Source: Christensenellales bacterium
GTDB lineage: Bacteria; Bacillota; Clostridia; Christensenellales; CAG-138
Assembly: GCA_048421225.1 (NCBI GenBank)
Contig: DBFNRV010000056.1
Span: 1-48,538, forward strand
Direction: 5' to 3'
DNA length: 48,538 bases
The notes beneath the pieces were generated by a model, which was given only the letters and a program-made list of their open reading frames with translations, ran no database searches and was not told the origin of the DNA. Numbering within the stretch: position 1 is the stretch's first letter; every line of letters starts with the position of its first letter. The translations under genes were made by a program, and so were the position numbers. Below are positions 2,277 through 48,483 of the stretch, one piece after another.

Positions 2277-3149
2277 TTACTTATTTTTCAGCTCAACGGG
2301 TATCCAAACTTCGTAATACCGCTTTTTCTGGCGTAGGCTGCGATCCGTCCACAGATGCGGCACCTCGATTGCAAGGGGGCACTTCTGCCTATACGCAGAT
2401 GCCGGAATCCAGGAGTCGGATATCAGTTCAAACAATTTGGGAAATTCCTCCCAAGCGAGTCCGACGCATTCCGTTTTGAAAGCCGCATATGTACCGGCAG
2501 GAATTATTCGCATCTTAAATGCGGTGTCCTTAACATCTGCCCTTTCACGGGCGATCATATACTTGCCGTCCTGCCATACGCCATACCAAACGCCATCGTA
2601 GGATGTACTTCCCAAATGATCCCAGCTACCTTCGCAGAGCTGAGCCGGAACGTCATCGCAATCATCCGCCCACATTGAATGGCGAAGTTCTTCGGGGGTT
2701 TTATATCCCTGTCCTTCGTACTGCTTTGATGCTCCGTAAACCTTGATGTCAGGCAGCTCGATAGTTCTAAAATCCATTTCTTTTTCTCCTTTGATCATGA
2801 TGTGAAGGGAAGCAGGTGGATATACTTTGATTGAACCTCCGTTTTTTCGATAGGCGGACGGTGTAATACCGTGTTGCTTCGCAAATGCTCTTGAGAAGGC
2901 TGCAGCACTGTCGTATCCATATTTTATGGCGATGTCGATGATATAATCATTGCTGTGCTGTAAATTCTGCGCTGCGAGAGTTAAGCGTCTGCGCCGTACA
3001 TATTCAGTCAGCGTCATGCCAGTCATATAACTAAAGAACCGAATAAAACTGTCTGCTGTTACGCGGGCCAATCGGGCAGCTTCACCGATATCGAACCCTG
3101 TGCACAAATTCGTCTCAATAATGGCAAAGGCCGATAACAGGAAGCCCAT
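2277..3149 (-). CDS. AraC-family transcriptional regulator with GyrI-like effector-binding domain
   Basis: The N-terminal double HTH (IDIAIKYGYDSAAAFSRAFAKQHGITPSAYR) is typical of AraC. The ~150-aa C-terminus (IELPDIKVYG...YEVWIPV) is typical of GyrI-like/SOUL small-molecule binding domains. Confidence 0.85.
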   Translation of the reverse strand: MGFLLSAFAIIETNLCTGFDIGEAARLARVTADSFIRFFSYMTGMTLTEYVRRRRLTLAAQNLQHSNDYIIDIAIKYGYDSAAAFSRAFAKQHGITPSAYRKNGGSIKVYPPASLHIMIKGEKEMDFRTIELPDIKVYGASKQYEGQGYKTPEELRHSMWADDCDDVPAQLCEGSWDHLGSTSYDGVWYGVWQDGKYMIARERADVKDTAFKMRIIPAGTYAAFKTECVGLAWEEFPKLFELISDSWIPASAYRQKCPLAIEVPHLWTDRSLRQKKRYYEVWIPVELKNK

Positions 3150-3369
3150 AATACATAAAACTGGACACCCACTCTGATACCCACTGTATCAAAATTGACG
3201 TCCAGTATGGTCCGAGTGGAATTATAGGACCTGGAGAAGCCCAGTCATATCCATGGTTTGTAGGCAATCGGCAAGCTATATTTGCTCACATGTGTCGCTT
3301 ATCTATCATATGATGACAGGGAGGCAGACGCAGGCTGTTTCTTAAATTTTGGAGAAAGAAGAGTATTAT

Positions 3370-3735
3370 ATGGACTATATGCAATCAGGTAACTGTGAGT
3401 GCCGGCCAGACCGGCCCATGGAGCAGACCCATGTTCATGAGGTGCTGGGCAGCGTTCAAATTGCTGAAGCCAAAACAGACCCTCACAATCATAGGTTTGC
3501 AGTTGTATCCGGCGAGGTAATTCCTATCGGAATGGGCGACCATGTCCATCAAGTGAAATTTAGAACGGATTTTTATGAGGATCATTTCCACGAATTCTGT
3601 GGCAGGACGCGGGGAGCCATCCCAGTCGGAGATGGTCGACATGTCCATTTTTTGGATTCCATCACTGAGCAAAGTGAAGGTCACAGGCATAAATTCAGGG
3701 TTTCCACTTTGATTAATGATCCTATTGGGGAGTAA
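3370..3735 (+). CDS. YmaF family protein
   Basis: Repeated His motifs HVHEVLG, HNHRFAV, HVHQV, HFHEF, HVHF and HRHKF match the YmaF repeat pattern. ATG at 3370 is preferred over the TTG at 3349 used in the ORF track, because a GAAGAG purine tract lies 6 nt upstream. Confidence 0.7.
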   Translation: MDYMQSGNCECRPDRPMEQTHVHEVLGSVQIAEAKTDPHNHRFAVVSGEVIPIGMGDHVHQVKFRTDFYEDHFHEFCGRTRGAIPVGDGRHVHFLDSITEQSEGHRHKFRVSTLINDPIGE

Positions 3736-3871: not shown

Positions 3872-3954
3872 TGGTGCGGTCGATGGGACTTGAACCCATA
3901 CGGTCTCCCATACGCCCCTCAAACGTACGCGTCTGCCTGTTCCGCCACGACCGC
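3872..3954 (-). tRNA. tRNA-Leu (anticodon GAG), CCA encoded
   Basis: The reverse complement reads GCGGTCGTGGCGGAAC...TACGT-TTGAGGG-GCGTA..., then a long variable arm, then GGGTTCAAGTCCCATCGACCGCACCA. This gives a 7-bp acceptor stem, a type II variable arm and a T-loop GTTCAAG. Confidence 0.9.
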
Positions 3955-10691: not shown

Positions 10692-10965
10692 ATAAAAGTG
10701 TAATTAAATTTAACGATAATACATGATATCATACGCAGCCTTGGATTTAAAGCTGTTGATCAAGCTATCATCAAACGTTTTTGCTTAATCCGAATTGACT
10801 TCGCGCTCTATTAGCTACATAATATAAGTGAAAGGAACTTTTATGTACTCTACACTTTTATATAACAACAATAGGATCCGCTGAAAGCTATGGTCCACAC
10901 TTTCGGCCTGGTAAAACCAGGTCTGCTTTATCTGCAAATCAGTTAATATATAAGGAGTGTTAGAC

Positions 10966-11616
10966 GTGAAAATTGAAAATAATGTACTCACGGAAGGTTT
11001 AAAAAATGTTCTATTCATAAGCGGCGGCGCGTATGGCGGAAAGACGACGACGGCTAAAAAGCTTCAGCAAAAGTATGGATTTGTCCGTTACCGCGAGGGC
11101 AACATGTGGGACGGGCACATGACATATGCGCAGCCCTCCTCCCAGCCCGCAATGTGCCACGACAGAAGCCTAGACTGGAATGGTTTTTATAACCAGCCTG
11201 CGGACAGACATCACCAATGGCTGGACGCCACCGTAAGGGAGGAGGCCGAGATGGCAATTATAGACCTCATAAAACTTTCCCATTCGCGGCGGGTCGTAGC
11301 CGATGTGCTGATTCCCCCCGATATGCTTAAGGAAATAGCCGGCTACCGCCAGGTTGCGCTCCTGTTTGCTCCCGTTGAAATGAAGCGGGCACATTACTTT
11401 GACAGGGAGGACAAAAGGCCTATGTTGAACCACATAATGTCCATGCCCAATCCGGAACAAACGCTGGAAAACGTGCTTGACGCCCTGACGTATGAAGGCG
11501 AAAAGGAGCTACGGTCGTTTTACAACAGCGGCTTTAAGTGCATAATGAGATCCCCCGACAGGCCGGTCGATGAAACGTTCAATGAAATCGAGCGGCATTT
11601 CGGGCTATTGAGCTAA
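10966..11616 (+). CDS. P-loop NTPase / kinase-like hypothetical protein
   Basis: A Walker A-like GGAYGGKTT lies near the N-terminus. GTG at 10966, 8 nt after AAGGAG, is preferred over the GTG at 10957 that overlaps the RBS. Confidence 0.55.
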   Translation: MKIENNVLTEGLKNVLFISGGAYGGKTTTAKKLQQKYGFVRYREGNMWDGHMTYAQPSSQPAMCHDRSLDWNGFYNQPADRHHQWLDATVREEAEMAIIDLIKLSHSRRVVADVLIPPDMLKEIAGYRQVALLFAPVEMKRAHYFDREDKRPMLNHIMSMPNPEQTLENVLDALTYEGEKELRSFYNSGFKCIMRSPDRPVDETFNEIERHFGLLS

Positions 11617-11629
11617 TATTCGCCAACAT

Positions 11630-11655
11630 GGGGAGCCTGGCTTAACAGGCTCCCC
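11630..11655. terminator. Strong hairpin between convergent genes
   Basis: GGGGAGCC (11630-11637) pairs with GGCTCCCC (11648-11655), with a 10-nt loop. There is no clear U-tract on either strand. Confidence 0.4.
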
Positions 11656-11688: not shown

Positions 11689-11994
11689 TTATACGTAAAT
11701 CCTCAGCATCGAATTCATCTCGTAATGGGTAGGCTTATAGTTGCGCTTGACATACCTCGCCTTTTCATCGCTGTTTTTGAGCGGCCCGTCGTTAAGCCAG
11801 TCTACGAACGCGTCGCCCTCGAAGTCAAGAATTCTGCTCCCTTCCTCGTCAATAATCCAGTAACCATGGTCGTTCTCCGGATTGTATATCCATTTTACAA
11901 ATTCATCGTTATAATATGAGTAGTTATCCACTATTAAATCGGGGCACTCTATAATATCCGTGGTATTGTCAGAGAACAGCAAAAACCGTTTCAT
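11689..11994 (-). CDS. Small cytosolic protein, paralog B of the cassette
   Basis: 101 aa, with RBS GGAGGG 7 nt upstream. It shares DI[IV]ECP, EF..W, GY.I.DEE and FVDWLN..PLK...KAR.VKR.Y.P blocks with the adjacent ORF 12032-12340. Confidence 0.6.
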   Translation of the reverse strand: MKRFLLFSDNTTDIIECPDLIVDNYSYYNDEFVKWIYNPENDHGYWIIDEEGSRILDFEGDAFVDWLNDGPLKNSDEKARYVKRNYKPTHYEMNSMLRIYV

Positions 11995-12031
11995 TAATAT
12001 CCCTCCAAAGTTTTTTAATTATAAACACAGG

Positions 12032-12340
12032 CTAAAAGTTTATCTTCGGCATATTCTTCACCTCAGATGGCAATGGATAATAATCGCGTTTGACAATCCG
12101 CGCCTTATCCTTACCGCCTTTAAGCGGAACCGCGTTGAGCCAGTCAACAAATGTGTCCGCGTTAAAGGAAATCCCTAGCTCGGCCTCTTCGTCAGAAATA
12201 TGATAACCGCTAGCTTTCCTGCGGCACTCTACCCTCCATGCATCGAATTCCCTCTGGTAATGCGCAAGGTTTTCCGCAATAGACTCGGGGCACTCGACTA
12301 TATCGGCATCATAGCCCCAATAAAGCATAATCCTCGTCAT
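12032..12340 (-). CDS. Small cytosolic protein, paralog A of the cassette
   Basis: 102 aa, with RBS AGGAGGG upstream. Its ATG overlaps the TGA of the upstream S8-like gene (ATGA). It is paralogous to 11689-11994. Confidence 0.6.
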   Translation of the reverse strand: MTRIMLYWGYDADIVECPESIAENLAHYQREFDAWRVECRRKASGYHISDEEAELGISFNADTFVDWLNAVPLKGGKDKARIVKRDYYPLPSEVKNMPKINF

Positions 12341-13080
12341 GGGCGTTCCCTCCTTTCCTTTTCGTTTATGTCTTTAATCATAGTAACTATGTTTAAGTAG
12401 GAATTGCCGCTATACATGCTAATCCCCTCCTGATTAAAAACGAGAATCTGTGATGAAGTATATGAAGTATCTGTGGGTTTATATTCTATCCTGCGGTCAC
12501 TCCCGCTGGCATATACGCCTTCGTACATGGCCGGATAGTCGGCAATGCTACTGAAGCGATTGTTATAACTGGCGTATATTTTGATATCAGGATGGTTCAA
12601 AACCCACTCCCTTAACTCCTCGCTATAGTATGGCGAACTTAAGCTAAGGCATACATAACCTATCCCATTAACGGCCATCCAGTCCAGCGCTTCTATTATG
12701 GCTGACGAGCTTATCATACCGTCCTCATCTGCCGCGCAGTAGTAGTATAGCTTTTTATAATAGCATAAATCGCCAAGAAAGTTAAGCATATCGTCGCCAT
12801 GCGTAGTCGCGCCGGCTCTGTTGGCGGCATTTCCAGCCAACACTACCTCGTCGCCATAGGTACCATTGAGCCAAGTATCTATAACTCCAATCTCACCATG
12901 TATCTCTGTCCTATCAGTTATGATAACGTAACTCCGCGTTATCGCAACAGAAAGTATTCCTACTAATAGAATTATGCCAGTACCTATAGCAATAACAAGC
13001 TTATACGATTTTTTGTTTCCAGACTGAATGCTCTTTTCCATAAAAACAATCAAACATCGTAGTAGGGCAATCCATACCAT
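12337..13080 (-). CDS. Membrane-anchored compact S8 (subtilisin-like) serine peptidase homolog
   Basis: One N-terminal TM helix (LVIAIGTGIILLVGILSVAI). Blocks then align in order to subtilisin: IGVIDTW (Asp), ATTHGDDM (His), VCLSLSS, IYASYNN (oxyanion Asn), DYPAMYEGVYASGS and YSGNSYLN (Ser). The alternative start is ATG 13041 (MEKS...). Confidence 0.65.
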   Translation of the reverse strand: MVWIALLRCLIVFMEKSIQSGNKKSYKLVIAIGTGIILLVGILSVAITRSYVIITDRTEIHGEIGVIDTWLNGTYGDEVVLAGNAANRAGATTHGDDMLNFLGDLCYYKKLYYYCAADEDGMISSSAIIEALDWMAVNGIGYVCLSLSSPYYSEELREWVLNHPDIKIYASYNNRFSSIADYPAMYEGVYASGSDRRIEYKPTDTSYTSSQILVFNQEGISMYSGNSYLNIVTMIKDINEKERRERP

Positions 13081-13883
13081 GCATGAGCGCCGTTCCTGTT
13101 TGCCGTATGATAATGATTAAAAGTAAAATGTTTTGGCTTACGGTGTGCTTCATCATGCGTATAACCTAGGCCTGTATTGCTTACTGCCGATCTTGCATTT
13201 GACTTGTAGAATGTATAAATGCTTTGACCAGAAGCTACTCTATTTGTAGCGGACGTTTTTGAAATGCTATGGTACAATGCCACAAATATTGTCTTACTGC
13301 CCAAATATGCCCTGTAGTATTTTGATATATACGAATTCTCCTTTATCTTTTCAATCACCCTGGGCACGGCGTAATATACGATTCCTCCGATGATGACTGT
13401 CAGAACCAATCCAAGTAAAATCTTCAGTAACAAAAGCAGACTTATGCCGCCTCCAATAACTATTGACGCTTGGCCTGTGTATACGTCCGGTACTATATCC
13501 TGATACGAAGTATATGTTTCTACTTTTGCCCCATTTTCATTCCATACTTCAACATTGACCTTTTCCTCATATAAATCGGATATTTCCAATACGTAATTTT
13601 CTTTGCGTTTATTATCATTATTATATGCGTAGGCGCTGCAGGTGCCGTCACTATTCAAGGTAAGCTTGCCATCGTAGCCTCCCTCAGCTTCTATGGTTAT
13701 AGTTCCATTATCCGACATCTTTACTGAAAAATCAATTCCTTCATATGTTACTACTTCATTATAAATATAAGATTTATTGTCACCCGACAAATCCTCAATT
13801 ATTTCGGTAGCATTAGTTGACGTTATAAATATTGATAATGCCAATACTAACGCTACAATTACAATTAGTCTTTTAGCTTTCAT
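13050..13883 (-). CDS. Signal-peptide protein with one TM segment and a His-rich C-terminal domain
   Basis: MKAKRLIVIVALVLALSIFITSTNA is signal-peptide-like. It is followed by a ~115-aa beta-rich domain, a 33-aa hydrophobic segment, and a ~100-aa tail ending THDEAHRKPKHFTFNHYHTANRNGAHAWYGLPYYDV. RBS AGGAGA lies 7 nt upstream. Confidence 0.65.
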   Translation of the reverse strand: MKAKRLIVIVALVLALSIFITSTNATEIIEDLSGDNKSYIYNEVVTYEGIDFSVKMSDNGTITIEAEGGYDGKLTLNSDGTCSAYAYNNDNKRKENYVLEISDLYEEKVNVEVWNENGAKVETYTSYQDIVPDVYTGQASIVIGGGISLLLLLKILLGLVLTVIIGGIVYYAVPRVIEKIKENSYISKYYRAYLGSKTIFVALYHSISKTSATNRVASGQSIYTFYKSNARSAVSNTGLGYTHDEAHRKPKHFTFNHYHTANRNGAHAWYGLPYYDV

Positions 13884-13918
13884 TTTTTTATCTCCTATTT
13901 CGATATATTACTATTTCA

Positions 13919-13947
13919 AGTCTATAAAATAGTGCGACTTATGTCAA
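13919..13947 (-). promoter_or_regulatory. Candidate promoter of the four-gene cassette
   Basis: The minus strand reads TTGACA, a 17-nt spacer, then TAGACT, in an AT-rich intergenic region about 35 nt upstream of the ATG. Confidence 0.35.
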
Positions 13948-14005: not shown

Positions 14006-14038
14006 AAAAAGGAGCCGGCTCCAAATCTGAGCGGCTCC
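14006..14038 (-). terminator. Terminator downstream of asnS
   Basis: GGAGCCG (14011-14017) pairs with CGGCTCC (14032-14038). TTTTT follows on the minus strand. Confidence 0.5.
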
Positions 14039-15643: not shown

Positions 15644-16563
15644 ATGAGAAACATCATTGAAGTAAGCGGGCTAAAAAAGAGCTATGGCAGCGTCAGGGCG
15701 GTAAATGGCATCGACTTTTCTGTGGATAGGGGAACATTGTTTGCCTTCCTCGGTCCAAACGGCGCCGGAAAGTCGACCCAATCGATATGGTTTGCACGCT
15801 GCTTGCCCCTGACTCAGGCACAGTTGTTGTTGACGGCTGCGTGCTTGGCAGGGACGACGCAGCCATCAGGGCTATAATCGGCGTTGTGTTTCAGGATCAT
15901 GTCCTGGATCCGCTCCTTACCGTGCGGGAAAATCTGTTAACAAGAGCGCGCTTTTACGGCACAACCGGAGGCAAGGCCAAGGAGGCCGCGAATGCCGCCG
16001 CCGAGGCGGCGGGCGCGGCGGAATTCGCGGACCGGCGATATGGAAAGCTATCCGGAGGCCAGAAACGCCGCGCAGATATTGCCAGGGCGCTCGTCAACAC
16101 GCCAAAGATCCTGTTCTTAGATGAACCTACCACCGGCCTCGATCCAAAAACCAAAGGAGACGTATGGCGCACAATAACGGAGTTGCAGCGTGAAACCGGC
16201 ATGACCGTATTCCTTACAACTCATTATATGGAAGAAGCCGCAGCCGCCGATTATATTACTATAATCGATAACGGTGAAATCGCCGTCCACGGCGCCCCAT
16301 ATGAGCTTGAGGAACGCTACAGCACGGATACAATGCGTTTGAAGCCAAAGAACAGGAAAAATTTAATCTCATATCTTCAGTCCCACAGTATCGAATATAA
16401 GGAGAAAAATGGCATCCTTTCCTTGGCCATGGACGATTCATTGTCAGCTATTCCGCTGCTGAATTCCATCGCCGCCATGATAGAGGGTTTTGAAGTCGTC
16501 CATGGTACTATGGAGGACGTTTTCATTCGGGTAACCGGCAAGGAGGCTGAAGACTATGCTTAA
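15644..16563 (+). pseudogene. ABC transporter ATP-binding protein with a 1-nt frameshift after Walker A
   Basis: ORF 15644-15877 ends its conserved part at [12 protein letters not shown] 15787-16563, in the +1 frame, continues as (P)[13 protein letters not shown]...LSGGQKRR...LFLDEPTTGLD. Only 2 nt (15779-15780) are left for the one residue expected between GKST and IDM. Confidence 0.8.
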
Positions 16564-17425
16564 TCTTACGCAAAGAAACCTTAAGATGTTTTTCCGGCAG
16601 AAATCGGCCGTGTTCTTCTCCCTGCTCTCGGTCATCATTATCATTGCGCTTTACCTGCTGTATTTAGGCGACGTATGGCGGGAAAGCTTTGGCGATATCC
16701 CTGGAGTCGCCTTCCTGATGGACAGCTGGATAATGGCGGGGACGCTTGCGGTAACATCGATTACAACCACCATGGGCGCGTTTGGAACGATGATAAACGA
16801 TATCGAAACCCGAGTAATAAAGGATTTTAAATCGGCGCCGCTGAAGCGTTATCAGATAGCTGGCGGATACCTGGTCTCGGCCTACGTTATAGGGCTTATA
16901 ATGAGCCTGGCGACTTTGATACTTGCAGAGGTCTATATACTGATAGGCGGCGGCGAGCTCCTTCCCTTTGGAGCTATGATTAAGGTTCTTGGCGTGCTTC
17001 TTGTTTCCGTTATGGCGTCAAGCTCCATGACTTTTTTTCTGGTCAGCTTTTTTAACAACAGTAATACCTTTGGCACCGCAAGCACCGTTATCGGTACGAT
17101 GATAGGCTTTCTTACCGGAGTTTATCTTCCAATAGGCACGCTTCCCTCAGCGATGCAATGGGTGATAAAGCTATTCCCTGTTTCCCATTCGGCCGCGCTC
17201 ATTAAACAGATATTCCTTGAGGCGCCCATTCAGCAGAGTTTTGCCGGAGCGCCCGCCGCGGCGGTTTCCGACTTTAACGAGTTTATGGGGGTTACATTCA
17301 GCTTTGGCGGCTATACAATGACTCCTACCGTCCATCTAATCGTTCTTGTTGCGGTATCAGCGCTATTCTTTGCGCTTACAGTCCTCAATATTTCCCGCAA
17401 AAATACTGACGGCAATATACGGTAA
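16556..17425 (+). CDS. ABC-2 type transporter permease
   Basis: 289 aa with six hydrophobic segments. It overlaps the ATPase gene stop by 8 nt (ATGCTTAA). Confidence 0.8.
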   Translation: MLNLTQRNLKMFFRQKSAVFFSLLSVIIIIALYLLYLGDVWRESFGDIPGVAFLMDSWIMAGTLAVTSITTTMGAFGTMINDIETRVIKDFKSAPLKRYQIAGGYLVSAYVIGLIMSLATLILAEVYILIGGGELLPFGAMIKVLGVLLVSVMASSSMTFFLVSFFNNSNTFGTASTVIGTMIGFLTGVYLPIGTLPSAMQWVIKLFPVSHSAALIKQIFLEAPIQQSFAGAPAAAVSDFNEFMGVTFSFGGYTMTPTVHLIVLVAVSALFFALTVLNISRKNTDGNIR

Positions 17426-18842: not shown

Positions 18843-18916
18843 TGGAGGCACCACCCGGAATCGAACCGGGGATGGCGATTTTGCAGACCGCTGCCTTACC
18901 GCTTGGCTATGGTGCC
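18843..18916 (-). tRNA. tRNA-Cys (GCA), CCA encoded
   Basis: The reverse complement reads GGCACCATAGCCAAGCGGTAAGGCAGCGGTCTGCAAAATCGCCATCCCCGGTTCGATTCCGGGTGGTGCCTCCA. Confidence 0.9.
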
Positions 18917-18992
18917 ATATCAATCCCCTTATATGCCCATGTAAAACTCAGGATGCCTCTTTAATATTTTTATTCCATATCCGCTTAAAAAA

Positions 18993-19068
18993 TGGAGCGG
19001 GAGACGGGGCTCGAACCCGCCACCTCCGCCTTGGCAAGGCGGCGCTCTACCAAATGAGCTACTCCCGC
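18993..19068 (-). tRNA. tRNA-Gly (GCC), CCA encoded
   Basis: The reverse complement reads GCGGGAGTAGCTCATTTGGTAGAGCGCCGCCTTGCCAAGGCGGAGGTGGCGGGTTCGAGCCCCGTCTCCCGCTCCA. Confidence 0.9.
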
Positions 19069-19070
19069 AA

Positions 19071-19146
19071 TGGTGCCTCAGAGTGGACTTGAACCACCGA
19101 CACAGGGATTTTCAGTCCCTTGCTCTACCAACTGAGCTACCGAGGC
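19071..19146 (-). tRNA. tRNA-Phe (GAA), CCA encoded
   Basis: The reverse complement reads GCCTCGGTAGCTCAGTTGGTAGAGCAAGGGACTGAAAATCCCTGTGTCGGTGGTTCAAGTCCACTCTGAGGCACCA. Confidence 0.9.
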
Positions 19147-19151
19147 GTTTA

Positions 19152-19228
19152 TGGCGACCCGGAGGGGGCTCGAACCCCTGACCTCCAGCGTGACAGGCTG
19201 GCATTCTAACCATCTGAACTACCGGGCC
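19152..19228 (-). tRNA. tRNA-Asp (GTC), CCA encoded
   Basis: The reverse complement reads GGCCCGGTAGTTCAGATGGTTAGAATGCCAGCCTGTCACGCTGGAGGTCAGGGGTTCGAGCCCCCTCCGGGTCGCCA. Confidence 0.9.
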
Positions 19229-19249
19229 GTTTTGCTAATCAAAAGCGGA

Positions 19250-19325
19250 TGGTGGGAGCAACAGGGCTCGAACCTGTGACCCCTTGCTTGTAAGGCAAGT
19301 GCTCTCCCAGCTGAGCTATGCTCCC
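19250..19325 (-). tRNA. tRNA-Val (TAC), CCA encoded
   Basis: The reverse complement reads GGGAGCATAGCTCAGCTGGGAGAGCACTTGCCTTACAAGCAAGGGGTCACAGGTTCGAGCCCTGTTGCTCCCACCA. Confidence 0.9.
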
Positions 19326-48407: not shown

Positions 48408-48483
48408 TGGCTCCCCCTGTTGGACTCGAACCAACGACACTGCGGTTAACAGCCGCATGCTCTACCGACTGAGCTAAGGAGGA
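48408..48483 (-). tRNA. tRNA-Asn (GTT), CCA encoded
   Basis: The reverse complement reads TCCTCCTTAGCTCAGTCGGTAGAGCATGCGGCTGTTAACCGCAGTGTCGTTGGTTCGAGTCCAACAGGGGGAGCCA. Confidence 0.9.

Follow-up and report, generated by a model that had tools for sequence, protein, structure and literature searches.

A probable Clostridial S8-PTS cassette encoding a pre-toxin, an exported mini-subtilase, and tandem immunity protein candidates

S8-PTS and the four-gene cassette

S8-PTS, as defined by Li, Tan & Zhang in 2022, has three components: an S8 peptidase, a toxin, and an immunity gene (PMC9424270). The peptidase is operonic and carries a signal peptide; the toxin consists of a signal peptide, an acidic BetaH domain of ∼120 amino acids (aa), and one of 16 C-terminal toxin domains; and the immunity proteins fall into 20 families (PMC9424270). 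In BetaH, a β-sheet wraps a C-terminal helix that is followed by basic residues (PMC9424270). A VOC fold in single copy makes up two of the toxin domains; one of the two, S8-VOC1, is extended at its N terminus and conserves four His residues, 3HPV and 1HAN are cited as its relatives, and its partner immunity proteins are ferredoxin-like (PMC9424270). Here we compare with this system a cassette of four genes (g1 to g4, with their putative promoter at positions 11689 to 13947, minus strand) from a 48,538-nucleotide (nt) stretch of Christensenellales DNA (contig DBFNRV010000056.1), which we call the window. The cassette is very probably a Clostridial member of S8-PTS, used in bacterial competition.

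An S8-PTS locus has been demonstrated experimentally in Staphylococcus aureus, namely the S8-Ntox35 locus studied by Mwangi et al. (bioRxiv 10.1101/2025.07.24.666436 = mBio 2026; PMC13556192). Its S8 peptidase, which is similar in size to g2 and has the triad D33-H62-S205, cuts extracellularly at S146|A147, in the loop that joins the BetaH sheet to the helix, thereby freeing the caged helix together with the toxin (PMC13556192). Cleavage is required to kill Listeria, and entry needs the target ABC transporter AnrAB (PMC13556192).

We file the cassette as S8-PTS because of its architecture, its gene linkage, its polymorphism, and the homology that runs through the helix and tail of g1. As in the published systems, a three-component operon combines an exported small S8 peptidase, a toxin with a Sec signal and a swappable tail, and one or more downstream immunity genes; a basic patch lies past the helix, the toxin domain is common to RHS proteins, and there is one locus per genome, in a chromosomal context that varies. 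The S8 peptidase is operonic, stands alone, and has an N-terminal export signal. Variable toxin domains occur on the conserved N-terminal module, as seen in the unrelated tail of a Lachnospiraceae locus (L004) and in the presence of the g1-type helix and tail on RHS cores. The adjacent immunity gene co-varies with the toxin domain, as judged by gene linkage (a g3/g4 homolog behind an RHS toxin, P0017; 165-173-aa and 91-aa proteins at other loci; and immunity-only alleles; all described below). The original prediction presented the arrangement as new, but its three-component layout had already been published in 2022 as S8-PTS (PMC9424270).

Named toxins are connected to g1 through its relatives. 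NF038340, the model for "SAR2788 family putative toxin," matches 12 of 149 g1-family members at E <= 0.01, in the N-terminal domain, and its curated cut-off of 50 bits is exceeded by P0121 (118.6 bits), P0163 (104.8 bits), P0160 (77 bits), and P0118 (74.3 bits). P0163 is WP_044892886.1 from Aeribacillus, which NCBI names SAR2788 family putative toxin, as it does a relative of P0121 from Bacillus cereus/mycoides. The Bacillales proteins that pass NF038340 share with g1 the signal peptide, the acidic β-domain, a hydrophobic helix of ∼38 residues, the basic patch, and the tail with its His motif. The earlier statement that none of the non-protease parts was recognized as a named family thus stands for g3 and g4, which are unnamed, but not for g1, whose relatives include SAR2788 family putative toxins and whose tail fits the description of S8-VOC1.

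The cassette differs from the published systems in several respects. Its hosts, and those of its homologs, are gut and anaerobic Clostridia (Oscillospiraceae, Christensenellales, Lachnospiraceae, Clostridium, and Alkaliphilus); the N-terminal domain of g1 is too divergent for the SAR2788 model, and its helix is strongly hydrophobic rather than cationic-amphipathic; immunity is represented by a tandem pair whose family has not been placed among the published 20; and toxin and immunity genes flank the protease gene, whose published position is mostly upstream of the toxin.

The novelty is modest, and the basic picture of S8-PTS is unchanged. What is new is the Clostridial range of a large family annotated as hypothetical, an unnamed tandem immunity family, a module of helix plus VOC-like domain common to RHS toxins, and a natural polymorphism between toxin-bearing and immunity-only alleles. 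S8-PTS, reported from Bacillales and Actinobacteria, would also range over strictly anaerobic Clostridia of the gut and the environment, in which annotation pipelines currently call these genes "hypothetical," and the cassette offers a concrete set of toxin, protease, and immunity genes for work on competition among human-gut Firmicutes.

The toxin-protease pairing extends well beyond the window. Genes of g1 and g2 type are paired in the window as well as in L001, L002, L004 to L007, L009, L011, L015, L016, L018, and L019, with identities down to 26-39% and variable gene order. In sister-genome loci (L001, L009, and L015), the two homologs adjoin at 89-95% identity and four ORFs (open reading frames) are kept; in distant loci (L002, L011, L016, L018, and L019), they adjoin at 26-40% identity, again with variable gene order. 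Co-occurrence with a short S8 gene in other genomes, which had been suggested as a check, holds for the toxin-S8 pair in at least 10 divergent loci.

The pre-toxin, its toxin domain, and the protease

g1 (13050-13883, minus strand) is an ORF of 277 aa that we take to encode an S8-PTS pre-toxin. The signal peptide, β-rich domain, hydrophobic segment, and His-dense tail that the original prediction described are all present. As read from the sequence, residues 1-25 (13809-13883, minus strand) form a putative Sec signal peptide, with MKAKR, a hydrophobic core, and a TNA|TE site. Next comes an acidic β-rich domain (residues 26-138; 13470-13808, minus strand), the sheet part of a BetaH-like domain; it comprises 113 aa with a net charge of −15, and AlphaFold2 (AF2) predicts eight β-strands in it at low confidence. 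It ends in D-x-Y-x-G-Q, of which D133, Y135, G137, and Q138 are invariant in 5 homologs; [YFW]xGQ was found in 65 of the 116 full-length family members, and the extended motif D-x-Y-x-G-Q|A-S is located exactly at the sheet/helix junction.

Past this junction lies a long, Gly-rich hydrophobic helix (residues 139-174; 13362-13469, minus strand), the helix part of the BetaH-like domain, whose 36 residues include ∼35 that are uncharged and whose Kyte-Doolittle hydropathy reaches 2.88 over 19 residues. The basic linker RVIEKIK separates it from the toxin domain. In the published BetaH domain, the counterpart of what had been called a transmembrane segment is probably the C-terminal helix. Conservation of the hydrophobic helix extends through the g1 family, SAR2788-family members included, and the helix is a trait of this toxin subtype rather than of the window because Bacillales relatives also carry a hydrophobic helix of ∼38 residues.

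Word-index homology searches gave 5-7 clusters per gene, thereby underestimating the families; an exhaustive profile search with full-length g1 corrected this for g1 and defined a family of 408 clusters at 50% identity, almost all of them 260-300 aa long and with the layout of g1. The AF2 model of full-length g1 had a pLDDT of 52, and its Foldseek hits, β-sheet matches to OspA and WD40 proteins, were meaningless. In one family member from a Eubacteriaceae metagenome-assembled genome (MAG; L021:5485-6297 = P0131), an N-terminal signal anchor is combined with the same toxin domain, and a second hydrophobic helix is missing; its surroundings show neither an S8 gene nor an obvious immunity gene.

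The C-terminal toxin domain (residues 188-277; 13053-13322, minus strand) is VOC-like and has conserved residues E245, H247, H257, H259, and H267; six His residues fall within the last 38 positions of g1. Modeled by AF2 from 54 diverse sequences, the tail reached a pLDDT of 94 and a pTM of 0.86, with secondary structure in the order β-β-α-β-α-β-β-β. H257, H259, and H267 are invariant, E245 is conserved in ≥90%, and H247 alternates with Asp. In the model, H257, H259, and H267 would lie on neighboring strands, as judged from strand assignments and the H-x-H spacing. The top Protein Data Bank hits in a Foldseek search with the tail model were nearly all VOC-superfamily enzymes (methylmalonyl-CoA epimerase, extradiol dioxygenases including 1HAN and 3HPV, and glyoxalases), none of them significant (E = 0.2-2, TM ∼0.33). 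A sequence-profile search of solved structures found no relative of the tail. Because of its H-x-H, the tail was also considered as an HNH or BECR nuclease; no library model for these matched, and the nearest structures were VOC instead.

Compared with the published description, the toxin domain is probably S8-VOC1. Like S8-VOC1, the tail model shows a single-copy core of βαβββ type with an N-terminal extension; it places conserved His residues (E-x-H, H-x-H, and H) on β-strands, and these motifs fit the "four His residues in S8-VOC1"; 1HAN and 3HPV are among the structural neighbors of both; and the tail occurs on toxins of the SAR2788/BetaH type. A difference is that many Clostridial members carry Asp instead of the fourth His (position 247).

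g2 encodes an exported mini-subtilase of 234 aa on the minus strand. Its longest ORF spans 12337-13080, but translation more likely begins at the ATG at 13041 (giving 12337-13041) because gene callers chose it in orthologous loci and because divergent homologs begin just before the hydrophobic segment. Eight divergent homologs all keep Asp55, His81, Asn161, and Ser214, and the triad order and spacing of subtilisin are kept in the family. A profile of the g2 family matched subtilisin BPN' at E = 3.9e-9, with Asp, His, and Asn aligned to D32, H64, and N155; the Ser region falls outside this HMMER alignment. g2 also matched the NCBIfam model for the subtilisin-like QhpE (4e-8) and a PHROG protease. 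Against Pfam Peptidase_S8 (PF00082), the window protein gave no match at E <= 1; homologs scored 24.1 bits (L004, above the gathering threshold of 21.8 bits), 21.0 bits, and 15.9 bits. The original prediction of an N-terminally anchored S8-like protein is upheld as to the S8 catalytic residues, but the N-terminal "anchor" could equally be a cleavable Sec signal peptide with a putative SVA|I site.

g2 resembles the subtilisin-family (S8) processing peptidases, namely QhpE, lantibiotic leader peptidases, and mycosins, in its conserved catalytic positions and in the dedicated role on a co-encoded substrate that we ascribe to it. It differs from them in having a catalytic domain of only ∼180 residues, with no I9 prodomain and no C-terminal extension, and in scoring, in the window version, below the Pfam S8 threshold.

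Immunity candidates, immunity-only alleles, and module exchange

g3 (12032-12340, minus strand; 102 aa) and g4 (11689-11994, minus strand; 101 aa) are paralogs, as had been noted (42% identity, E = 3e-26). We read them as putative immunity proteins because a distant homolog directly follows an RHS toxin with the same domain: P0017, which matches the g3/g4 profile at E = 4.5e-10, begins 25 nt downstream of the RHS toxin gene of L012, whose product has the same tail motif. This is where an immunity gene classically stands relative to its toxin. Neither sequence has an export signal. A search of solved structures with g3/g4 profiles found nothing, and the possibility that each corresponds to half of the 165-173-aa putative immunity family described below was dropped (hhalign probability, 0.5%).

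Members of the 90%-identity cluster of g4 lie on 285, 223, and 121 contigs, far more than those of g1 or g2. For the 285-contig member (P0173, 97% identical to g4), g1 and g2 were missing in 8 of the 8 places listed; these loci have asnS, ∼500 nt, and three small paralogs in that order, with no toxin gene and no protease gene. In these loci, L102 to L109 (e.g., L102:4720-6306), the three g3/g4-type paralogs are in tandem. Presence and absence could be compared between sister strains: L001, which has the full cassette (the segment compared is L001:4840-6496), matches L102 at 98.1% identity along a 4.7-kb stretch that runs to the end of asnS, beyond which the g1+g2 segment is missing from L102 and homology to L001 returns at the small genes. 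The immunity-only form is on more contigs than the toxin-bearing form. The number of g3/g4-type paralogs is two or three, depending on the strain; in the UMGS946 "Clostridiales" genome (L015, 7544-8621), toxin and S8 genes accompany three paralogs, the extra copy being 83% identical to g3. asnS neighborhoods in metagenomes were uninformative on sister strains: in 80 loci, asnS was at most 74% identical, and none of the 80 had the cassette.

The immunity-only alleles found in the same background agree with the expectation for a toxin that comes from neighboring cells. Together with P0017 and the two to three copies, they favor the second possibility raised by the original prediction, a toxin-like effector with duplicated immunity partners. 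They also constitute a natural experiment, in which one species backbone carries either toxin, protease, and two immunity genes or three immunity genes only.

The tail of g1 also travels on other carriers. In P0088, a fragment of an RHS/YD-repeat protein, the core "...NPINYVDPTGH" is followed directly by a hydrophobic helix, a basic patch, and a g1-type tail. This suggests that helix and toxin form the released unit because the RHS core of P0088 ends at the same sheet/helix point. The RHS protein of L012 (1883 aa) ends in "...GPEIHLNRPNPFEHIHVGPVNH," with the E-x-H, F-x-H-x-H, and H motif also seen in g1 relatives such as "...SPEIHLRKGTFSFYHYHTANRNGAH." Between its core and the toxin domain (L012:5500-5976) are a Gly-rich hydrophobic segment and several tandem copies of a "FVEQMPV"-like motif. 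RHS repeats are limited to P0088, one other g1-family member, and the L012 protein; a Pfam scan found none in g1. The likeness of g1 to RHS/YD-repeat toxins lies in the module of hydrophobic helix and VOC-like domain, which P0088 and the L012 protein carry as their C-terminal payload, whereas g1 is without RHS repeats and a self-cleaving core, and its release would depend instead on a separate S8 peptidase.

Conversely, the N-terminal module of g1 occurs with another tail. In L004 to L007, from a MAG annotated as Lachnospiraceae, a 287-aa protein is encoded ahead of an S8 homolog, and a different 91-aa gene follows. This protein has a signal peptide, an acidic β-domain, Y-x-G-Q, a hydrophobic helix, a long basic linker, and an unrelated C-terminal domain. 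A hidden Markov model (HMM) of the N-terminal module, built from 80 g1-family members with their tails removed, matched it at E = 2e-11 over residues 1-192 and matched no unrelated ORF in ∼100 loci. The C-terminal ∼90 residues of the variant toxin (L004:4850-5713) end in ...LYSKNGKKLYQRRFYDRKGKVFLDIDFSHGGNHIFPHAHYWIWY and have no Pfam match; the 91-aa gene is likewise unmatched, and the two may be a further toxin/immunity pair outside current libraries. Direct repeats of 173 nt with 91% identity (L004, 4490-4662 and 7241-7413) bracket the L004 cassette and overlap small repeated ORFs, which suggests insertion or recombination of the cassette as a unit. L010 (2177-2766) holds a degraded copy of the L004 type, in which the toxin is split into fragments of 106 aa and 44 aa and the S8 gene (2870-3502) is intact.

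In loci whose toxins have the tail subtype "ENHxxWxKxG," an unrelated protein of 165-173 aa fills the immunity position and is a candidate for an alternative immunity family. It has an invariant DPxYDQYD and no Pfam match, and in four loci it sits between the toxin and S8 genes; its coordinates are L016:3754-4251, L017:5186-5677, L018:6779-7288, and L019:7001-7522. In L017 (Clostridium prolinivorans), no S8 gene is visible near the toxin.

Proposed mechanism, competing explanations, and genomic context

In the mechanism that we propose, Sec would export g1 as an inactive pre-toxin whose acidic β-sheet domain shields the hydrophobic helix, with the basic linker joining this helix to a toxin domain of ∼90 residues. 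By analogy with S. aureus, co-transcribed g2 would cut g1 extracellularly at the sheet/helix junction, near D-x-Y-x-G-Q|A-S, to free helix and toxin, and the helix would drive association with, and entry through, the target membrane. The VOC-like domain, whose metal site would probably consist of conserved His and Glu residues, might then damage its target in the recipient cytoplasm; cytoplasmic g3 and g4 would bind and neutralize the toxin in producers and kin. We infer secretion, extracellular cleavage, membrane targeting, and immunity by binding from the published system. One of the possibilities raised by the original prediction, a proteolysis-gated transmembrane module, is borne out in part: an extracytoplasmic protease acting on the g1 ectodomain matches the S. 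aureus mechanism (PMC13556192), whereas a transmembrane module of the signaling type is unsupported.

Several observations weigh against assigning the cassette to S8-PTS. g1 matches no Pfam, PHROGs, or PADLOC model and falls short of NF038340 as well, missing its cut-off and giving no match at E <= 1. Its β-domain aligns weakly with SAR2788-like β-domains (hhalign probability, 30%), and an iterated search begun from the β-domain alone of P0110, which matches SAR2788, converged on 9 proteins without reaching g1. Because the similarity of the β-domain is weak, BetaH membership of g1, judged against the published description, draws on layout and on homology through helix and tail; we regard it as probable. 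The helix is far more hydrophobic than the "cationic amphipathic" helix, and by standard rules (Kyte-Doolittle 2.9) it would be a stop-transfer anchor that leaves the toxin domain in the producer cytoplasm. The structural matches of the toxin domain to VOC enzymes are not statistically significant, as given above, and the published distribution of S8-PTS covers Bacillales and Actinobacteria, with Clostridia unmentioned (PMC9424270).

A helix of this kind raises the question of how a toxin behind it, in a module common to RHS toxins, leaves the producer and enters the target. One answer, which we consider unlikely, is that the branch of S8-PTS with hydrophobic helix and VOC tail works unlike the diffusible S. 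aureus system. The pre-toxin would be anchored, with its toxin domain facing the cytoplasm; S8 would release a membrane-embedded helix-toxin unit that either acts on the producer or passes to other cells by vesicles, by contact, or by exchange of membrane; the module would be reused in RHS toxins; and the dominance of immunity-only alleles would reflect a producer-versus-cheater dynamic in human-gut Clostridia.

Taken as a rival to secretion of a diffusible toxin, a membrane-embedded toxin, with the helix as stop-transfer anchor and the toxin domain held in the producer cytoplasm and checked there by g3/g4, seems to us quite improbable; cleavage of the ectodomain by S8 would then govern either delivery, for example in vesicles or on cell contact, or an arrest of growth or abortive response directed at the producer itself. 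The hydropathy of 2.88 over 19 residues, the uncharged run of ∼35 residues, and the basic residues C-terminal of the helix all suit an anchor, as does family-wide conservation of the helix; the putative immunity proteins are without export signals; and the S. aureus experiments concerned an Ntox35 toxin with an amphipathic helix rather than the subtype with hydrophobic helix and VOC tail (PMC13556192). Yet RHS proteins, which are delivered toxins, carry the module of helix and toxin as their C-terminal payload, and in L021/P0131, where a second hydrophobic segment is missing, the toxin domain must be extracellular. Moreover, immunity-only alleles fit a toxin from outside rather than a self-directed one, and in PADLOC-DB no defense model matched any of the four proteins at E <= 1.

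It is very doubtful that the cassette is a decaying or inert remnant of mobile DNA with non-functional genes. Low G+C, the degraded toxin genes of L010, and the loss of toxin and protease from the prevalent immunity-only allele could be taken as signs of decay, but in the window none of the four ORFs is broken, ribosome-binding sites and coupled junctions are in place, catalytic and toxin-motif residues are preserved, and orthologs at 89-95% identity keep all four ORFs. Regulated-proteolysis signaling, in which g1 would be a type I membrane receptor, g2 would shed its ectodomain, and a cytoplasmic His-rich output domain would act with g3/g4 as regulatory partners, is hardly credible: the sequence-predicted topology (signal peptide, ectodomain, hydrophobic segment, and tail) and the exported protease alongside would suit it, but the tail occurs at RHS toxin C termini and is followed there by a g3/g4 homolog, the N-terminal module bears an unrelated tail in L004, relatives belong to the SAR2788 putative toxin family, Pfam and NCBIfam scans found no DNA-binding, kinase, or sigma/anti-sigma component in the cassette, and strains with g3/g4 paralogs alone would have partners without a receptor. 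For g1, a type I membrane receptor subject to regulated intramembrane proteolysis was accordingly dropped in view of the RHS-borne tail and the S8-PTS literature.

As for the organization of the S8-PTS cassette itself, ORFs, overlaps, and hairpin folding against shuffled sequences agree with the original prediction of four same-strand genes with coupled junctions between two hairpins. The upstream limit is the terminator of asnS, a hairpin followed by TTTTT (14006-14038, minus strand; −21.8 kcal/mol, z = −3.6 versus shuffles). The proposed promoter is also present: a consensus scan for sigma-70-type promoters gave TTGACA-17-TAGACT (13947-13919, minus strand), which matches at 10 of 12 positions, is among the best consensus matches of the region, and sits between the asnS terminator and the ribosome-binding site of g1; on this consensus match it is the candidate promoter of the cassette. 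The g2 start at ATG 13041 lies 8 nt past the g1 stop, the ATG of g3 shares ATGA with the g2 stop, and a gap of 37 nt separates g3 from g4, which is preceded by a GGAGGG ribosome-binding site. A GC-rich hairpin after g4 (11630-11655, strand unassigned; −25 kcal/mol, z = −4.6, with 0 of 200 shuffles as stable) is likely a terminator common to g4 and to the convergent gene at 10957-11616.

Comparison of the four proteins with Pfam, NCBIfam, PADLOC, and PHROGs gave weak protease matches for g2 and nothing else. The neighbors of the cassette are housekeeping genes (Obg, HhH-GPD glycosylase, YebC, UDG, asnS, an ABC-2 transporter, and a tRNA cluster). G+C is low, as noted originally for g1 and its promoter region: 37.5% in g1, 42.7% in g2, 47.9% in g3, 42.8% in g4, and 40.7% in the whole cassette, compared with 48.3% in the whole window and 51% in asnS; the cassette falls in the lowest 2.2% of equal-sized windows. 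Three observations support the proposed acquired origin: this dip, the unrelated chromosomal surroundings of the cassette in other taxa, and its presence or absence within a single genome background. A search for repeats flanking the cassette in the window found none.

The convergent gene beyond g4 (10957-11616) is an ORF of 219 aa that no Pfam model matches at 1e-5; its sequence includes GGAYGGKTT, which resembles a P-loop, and in immunity-only loci its sole remnant is a match resembling a C-terminal fragment, with 73% identity over 70 aa. An ABC-2-type transporter pair (15787-17425) is divergent and adjoins asnS, and another lies beside the L004 locus; the pair is worth mentioning since Listeria intoxication by S8-PTS needs an ABC transporter. 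A meaningful link between the two cassettes and their ABC transporters was rejected as coincidence, since the ATPases are 31% identical, a generic similarity. Elsewhere, the window carries five clustered minus-strand tRNA genes (18846-19325) and single tRNA genes at 3875-3954 and 48411-48483.

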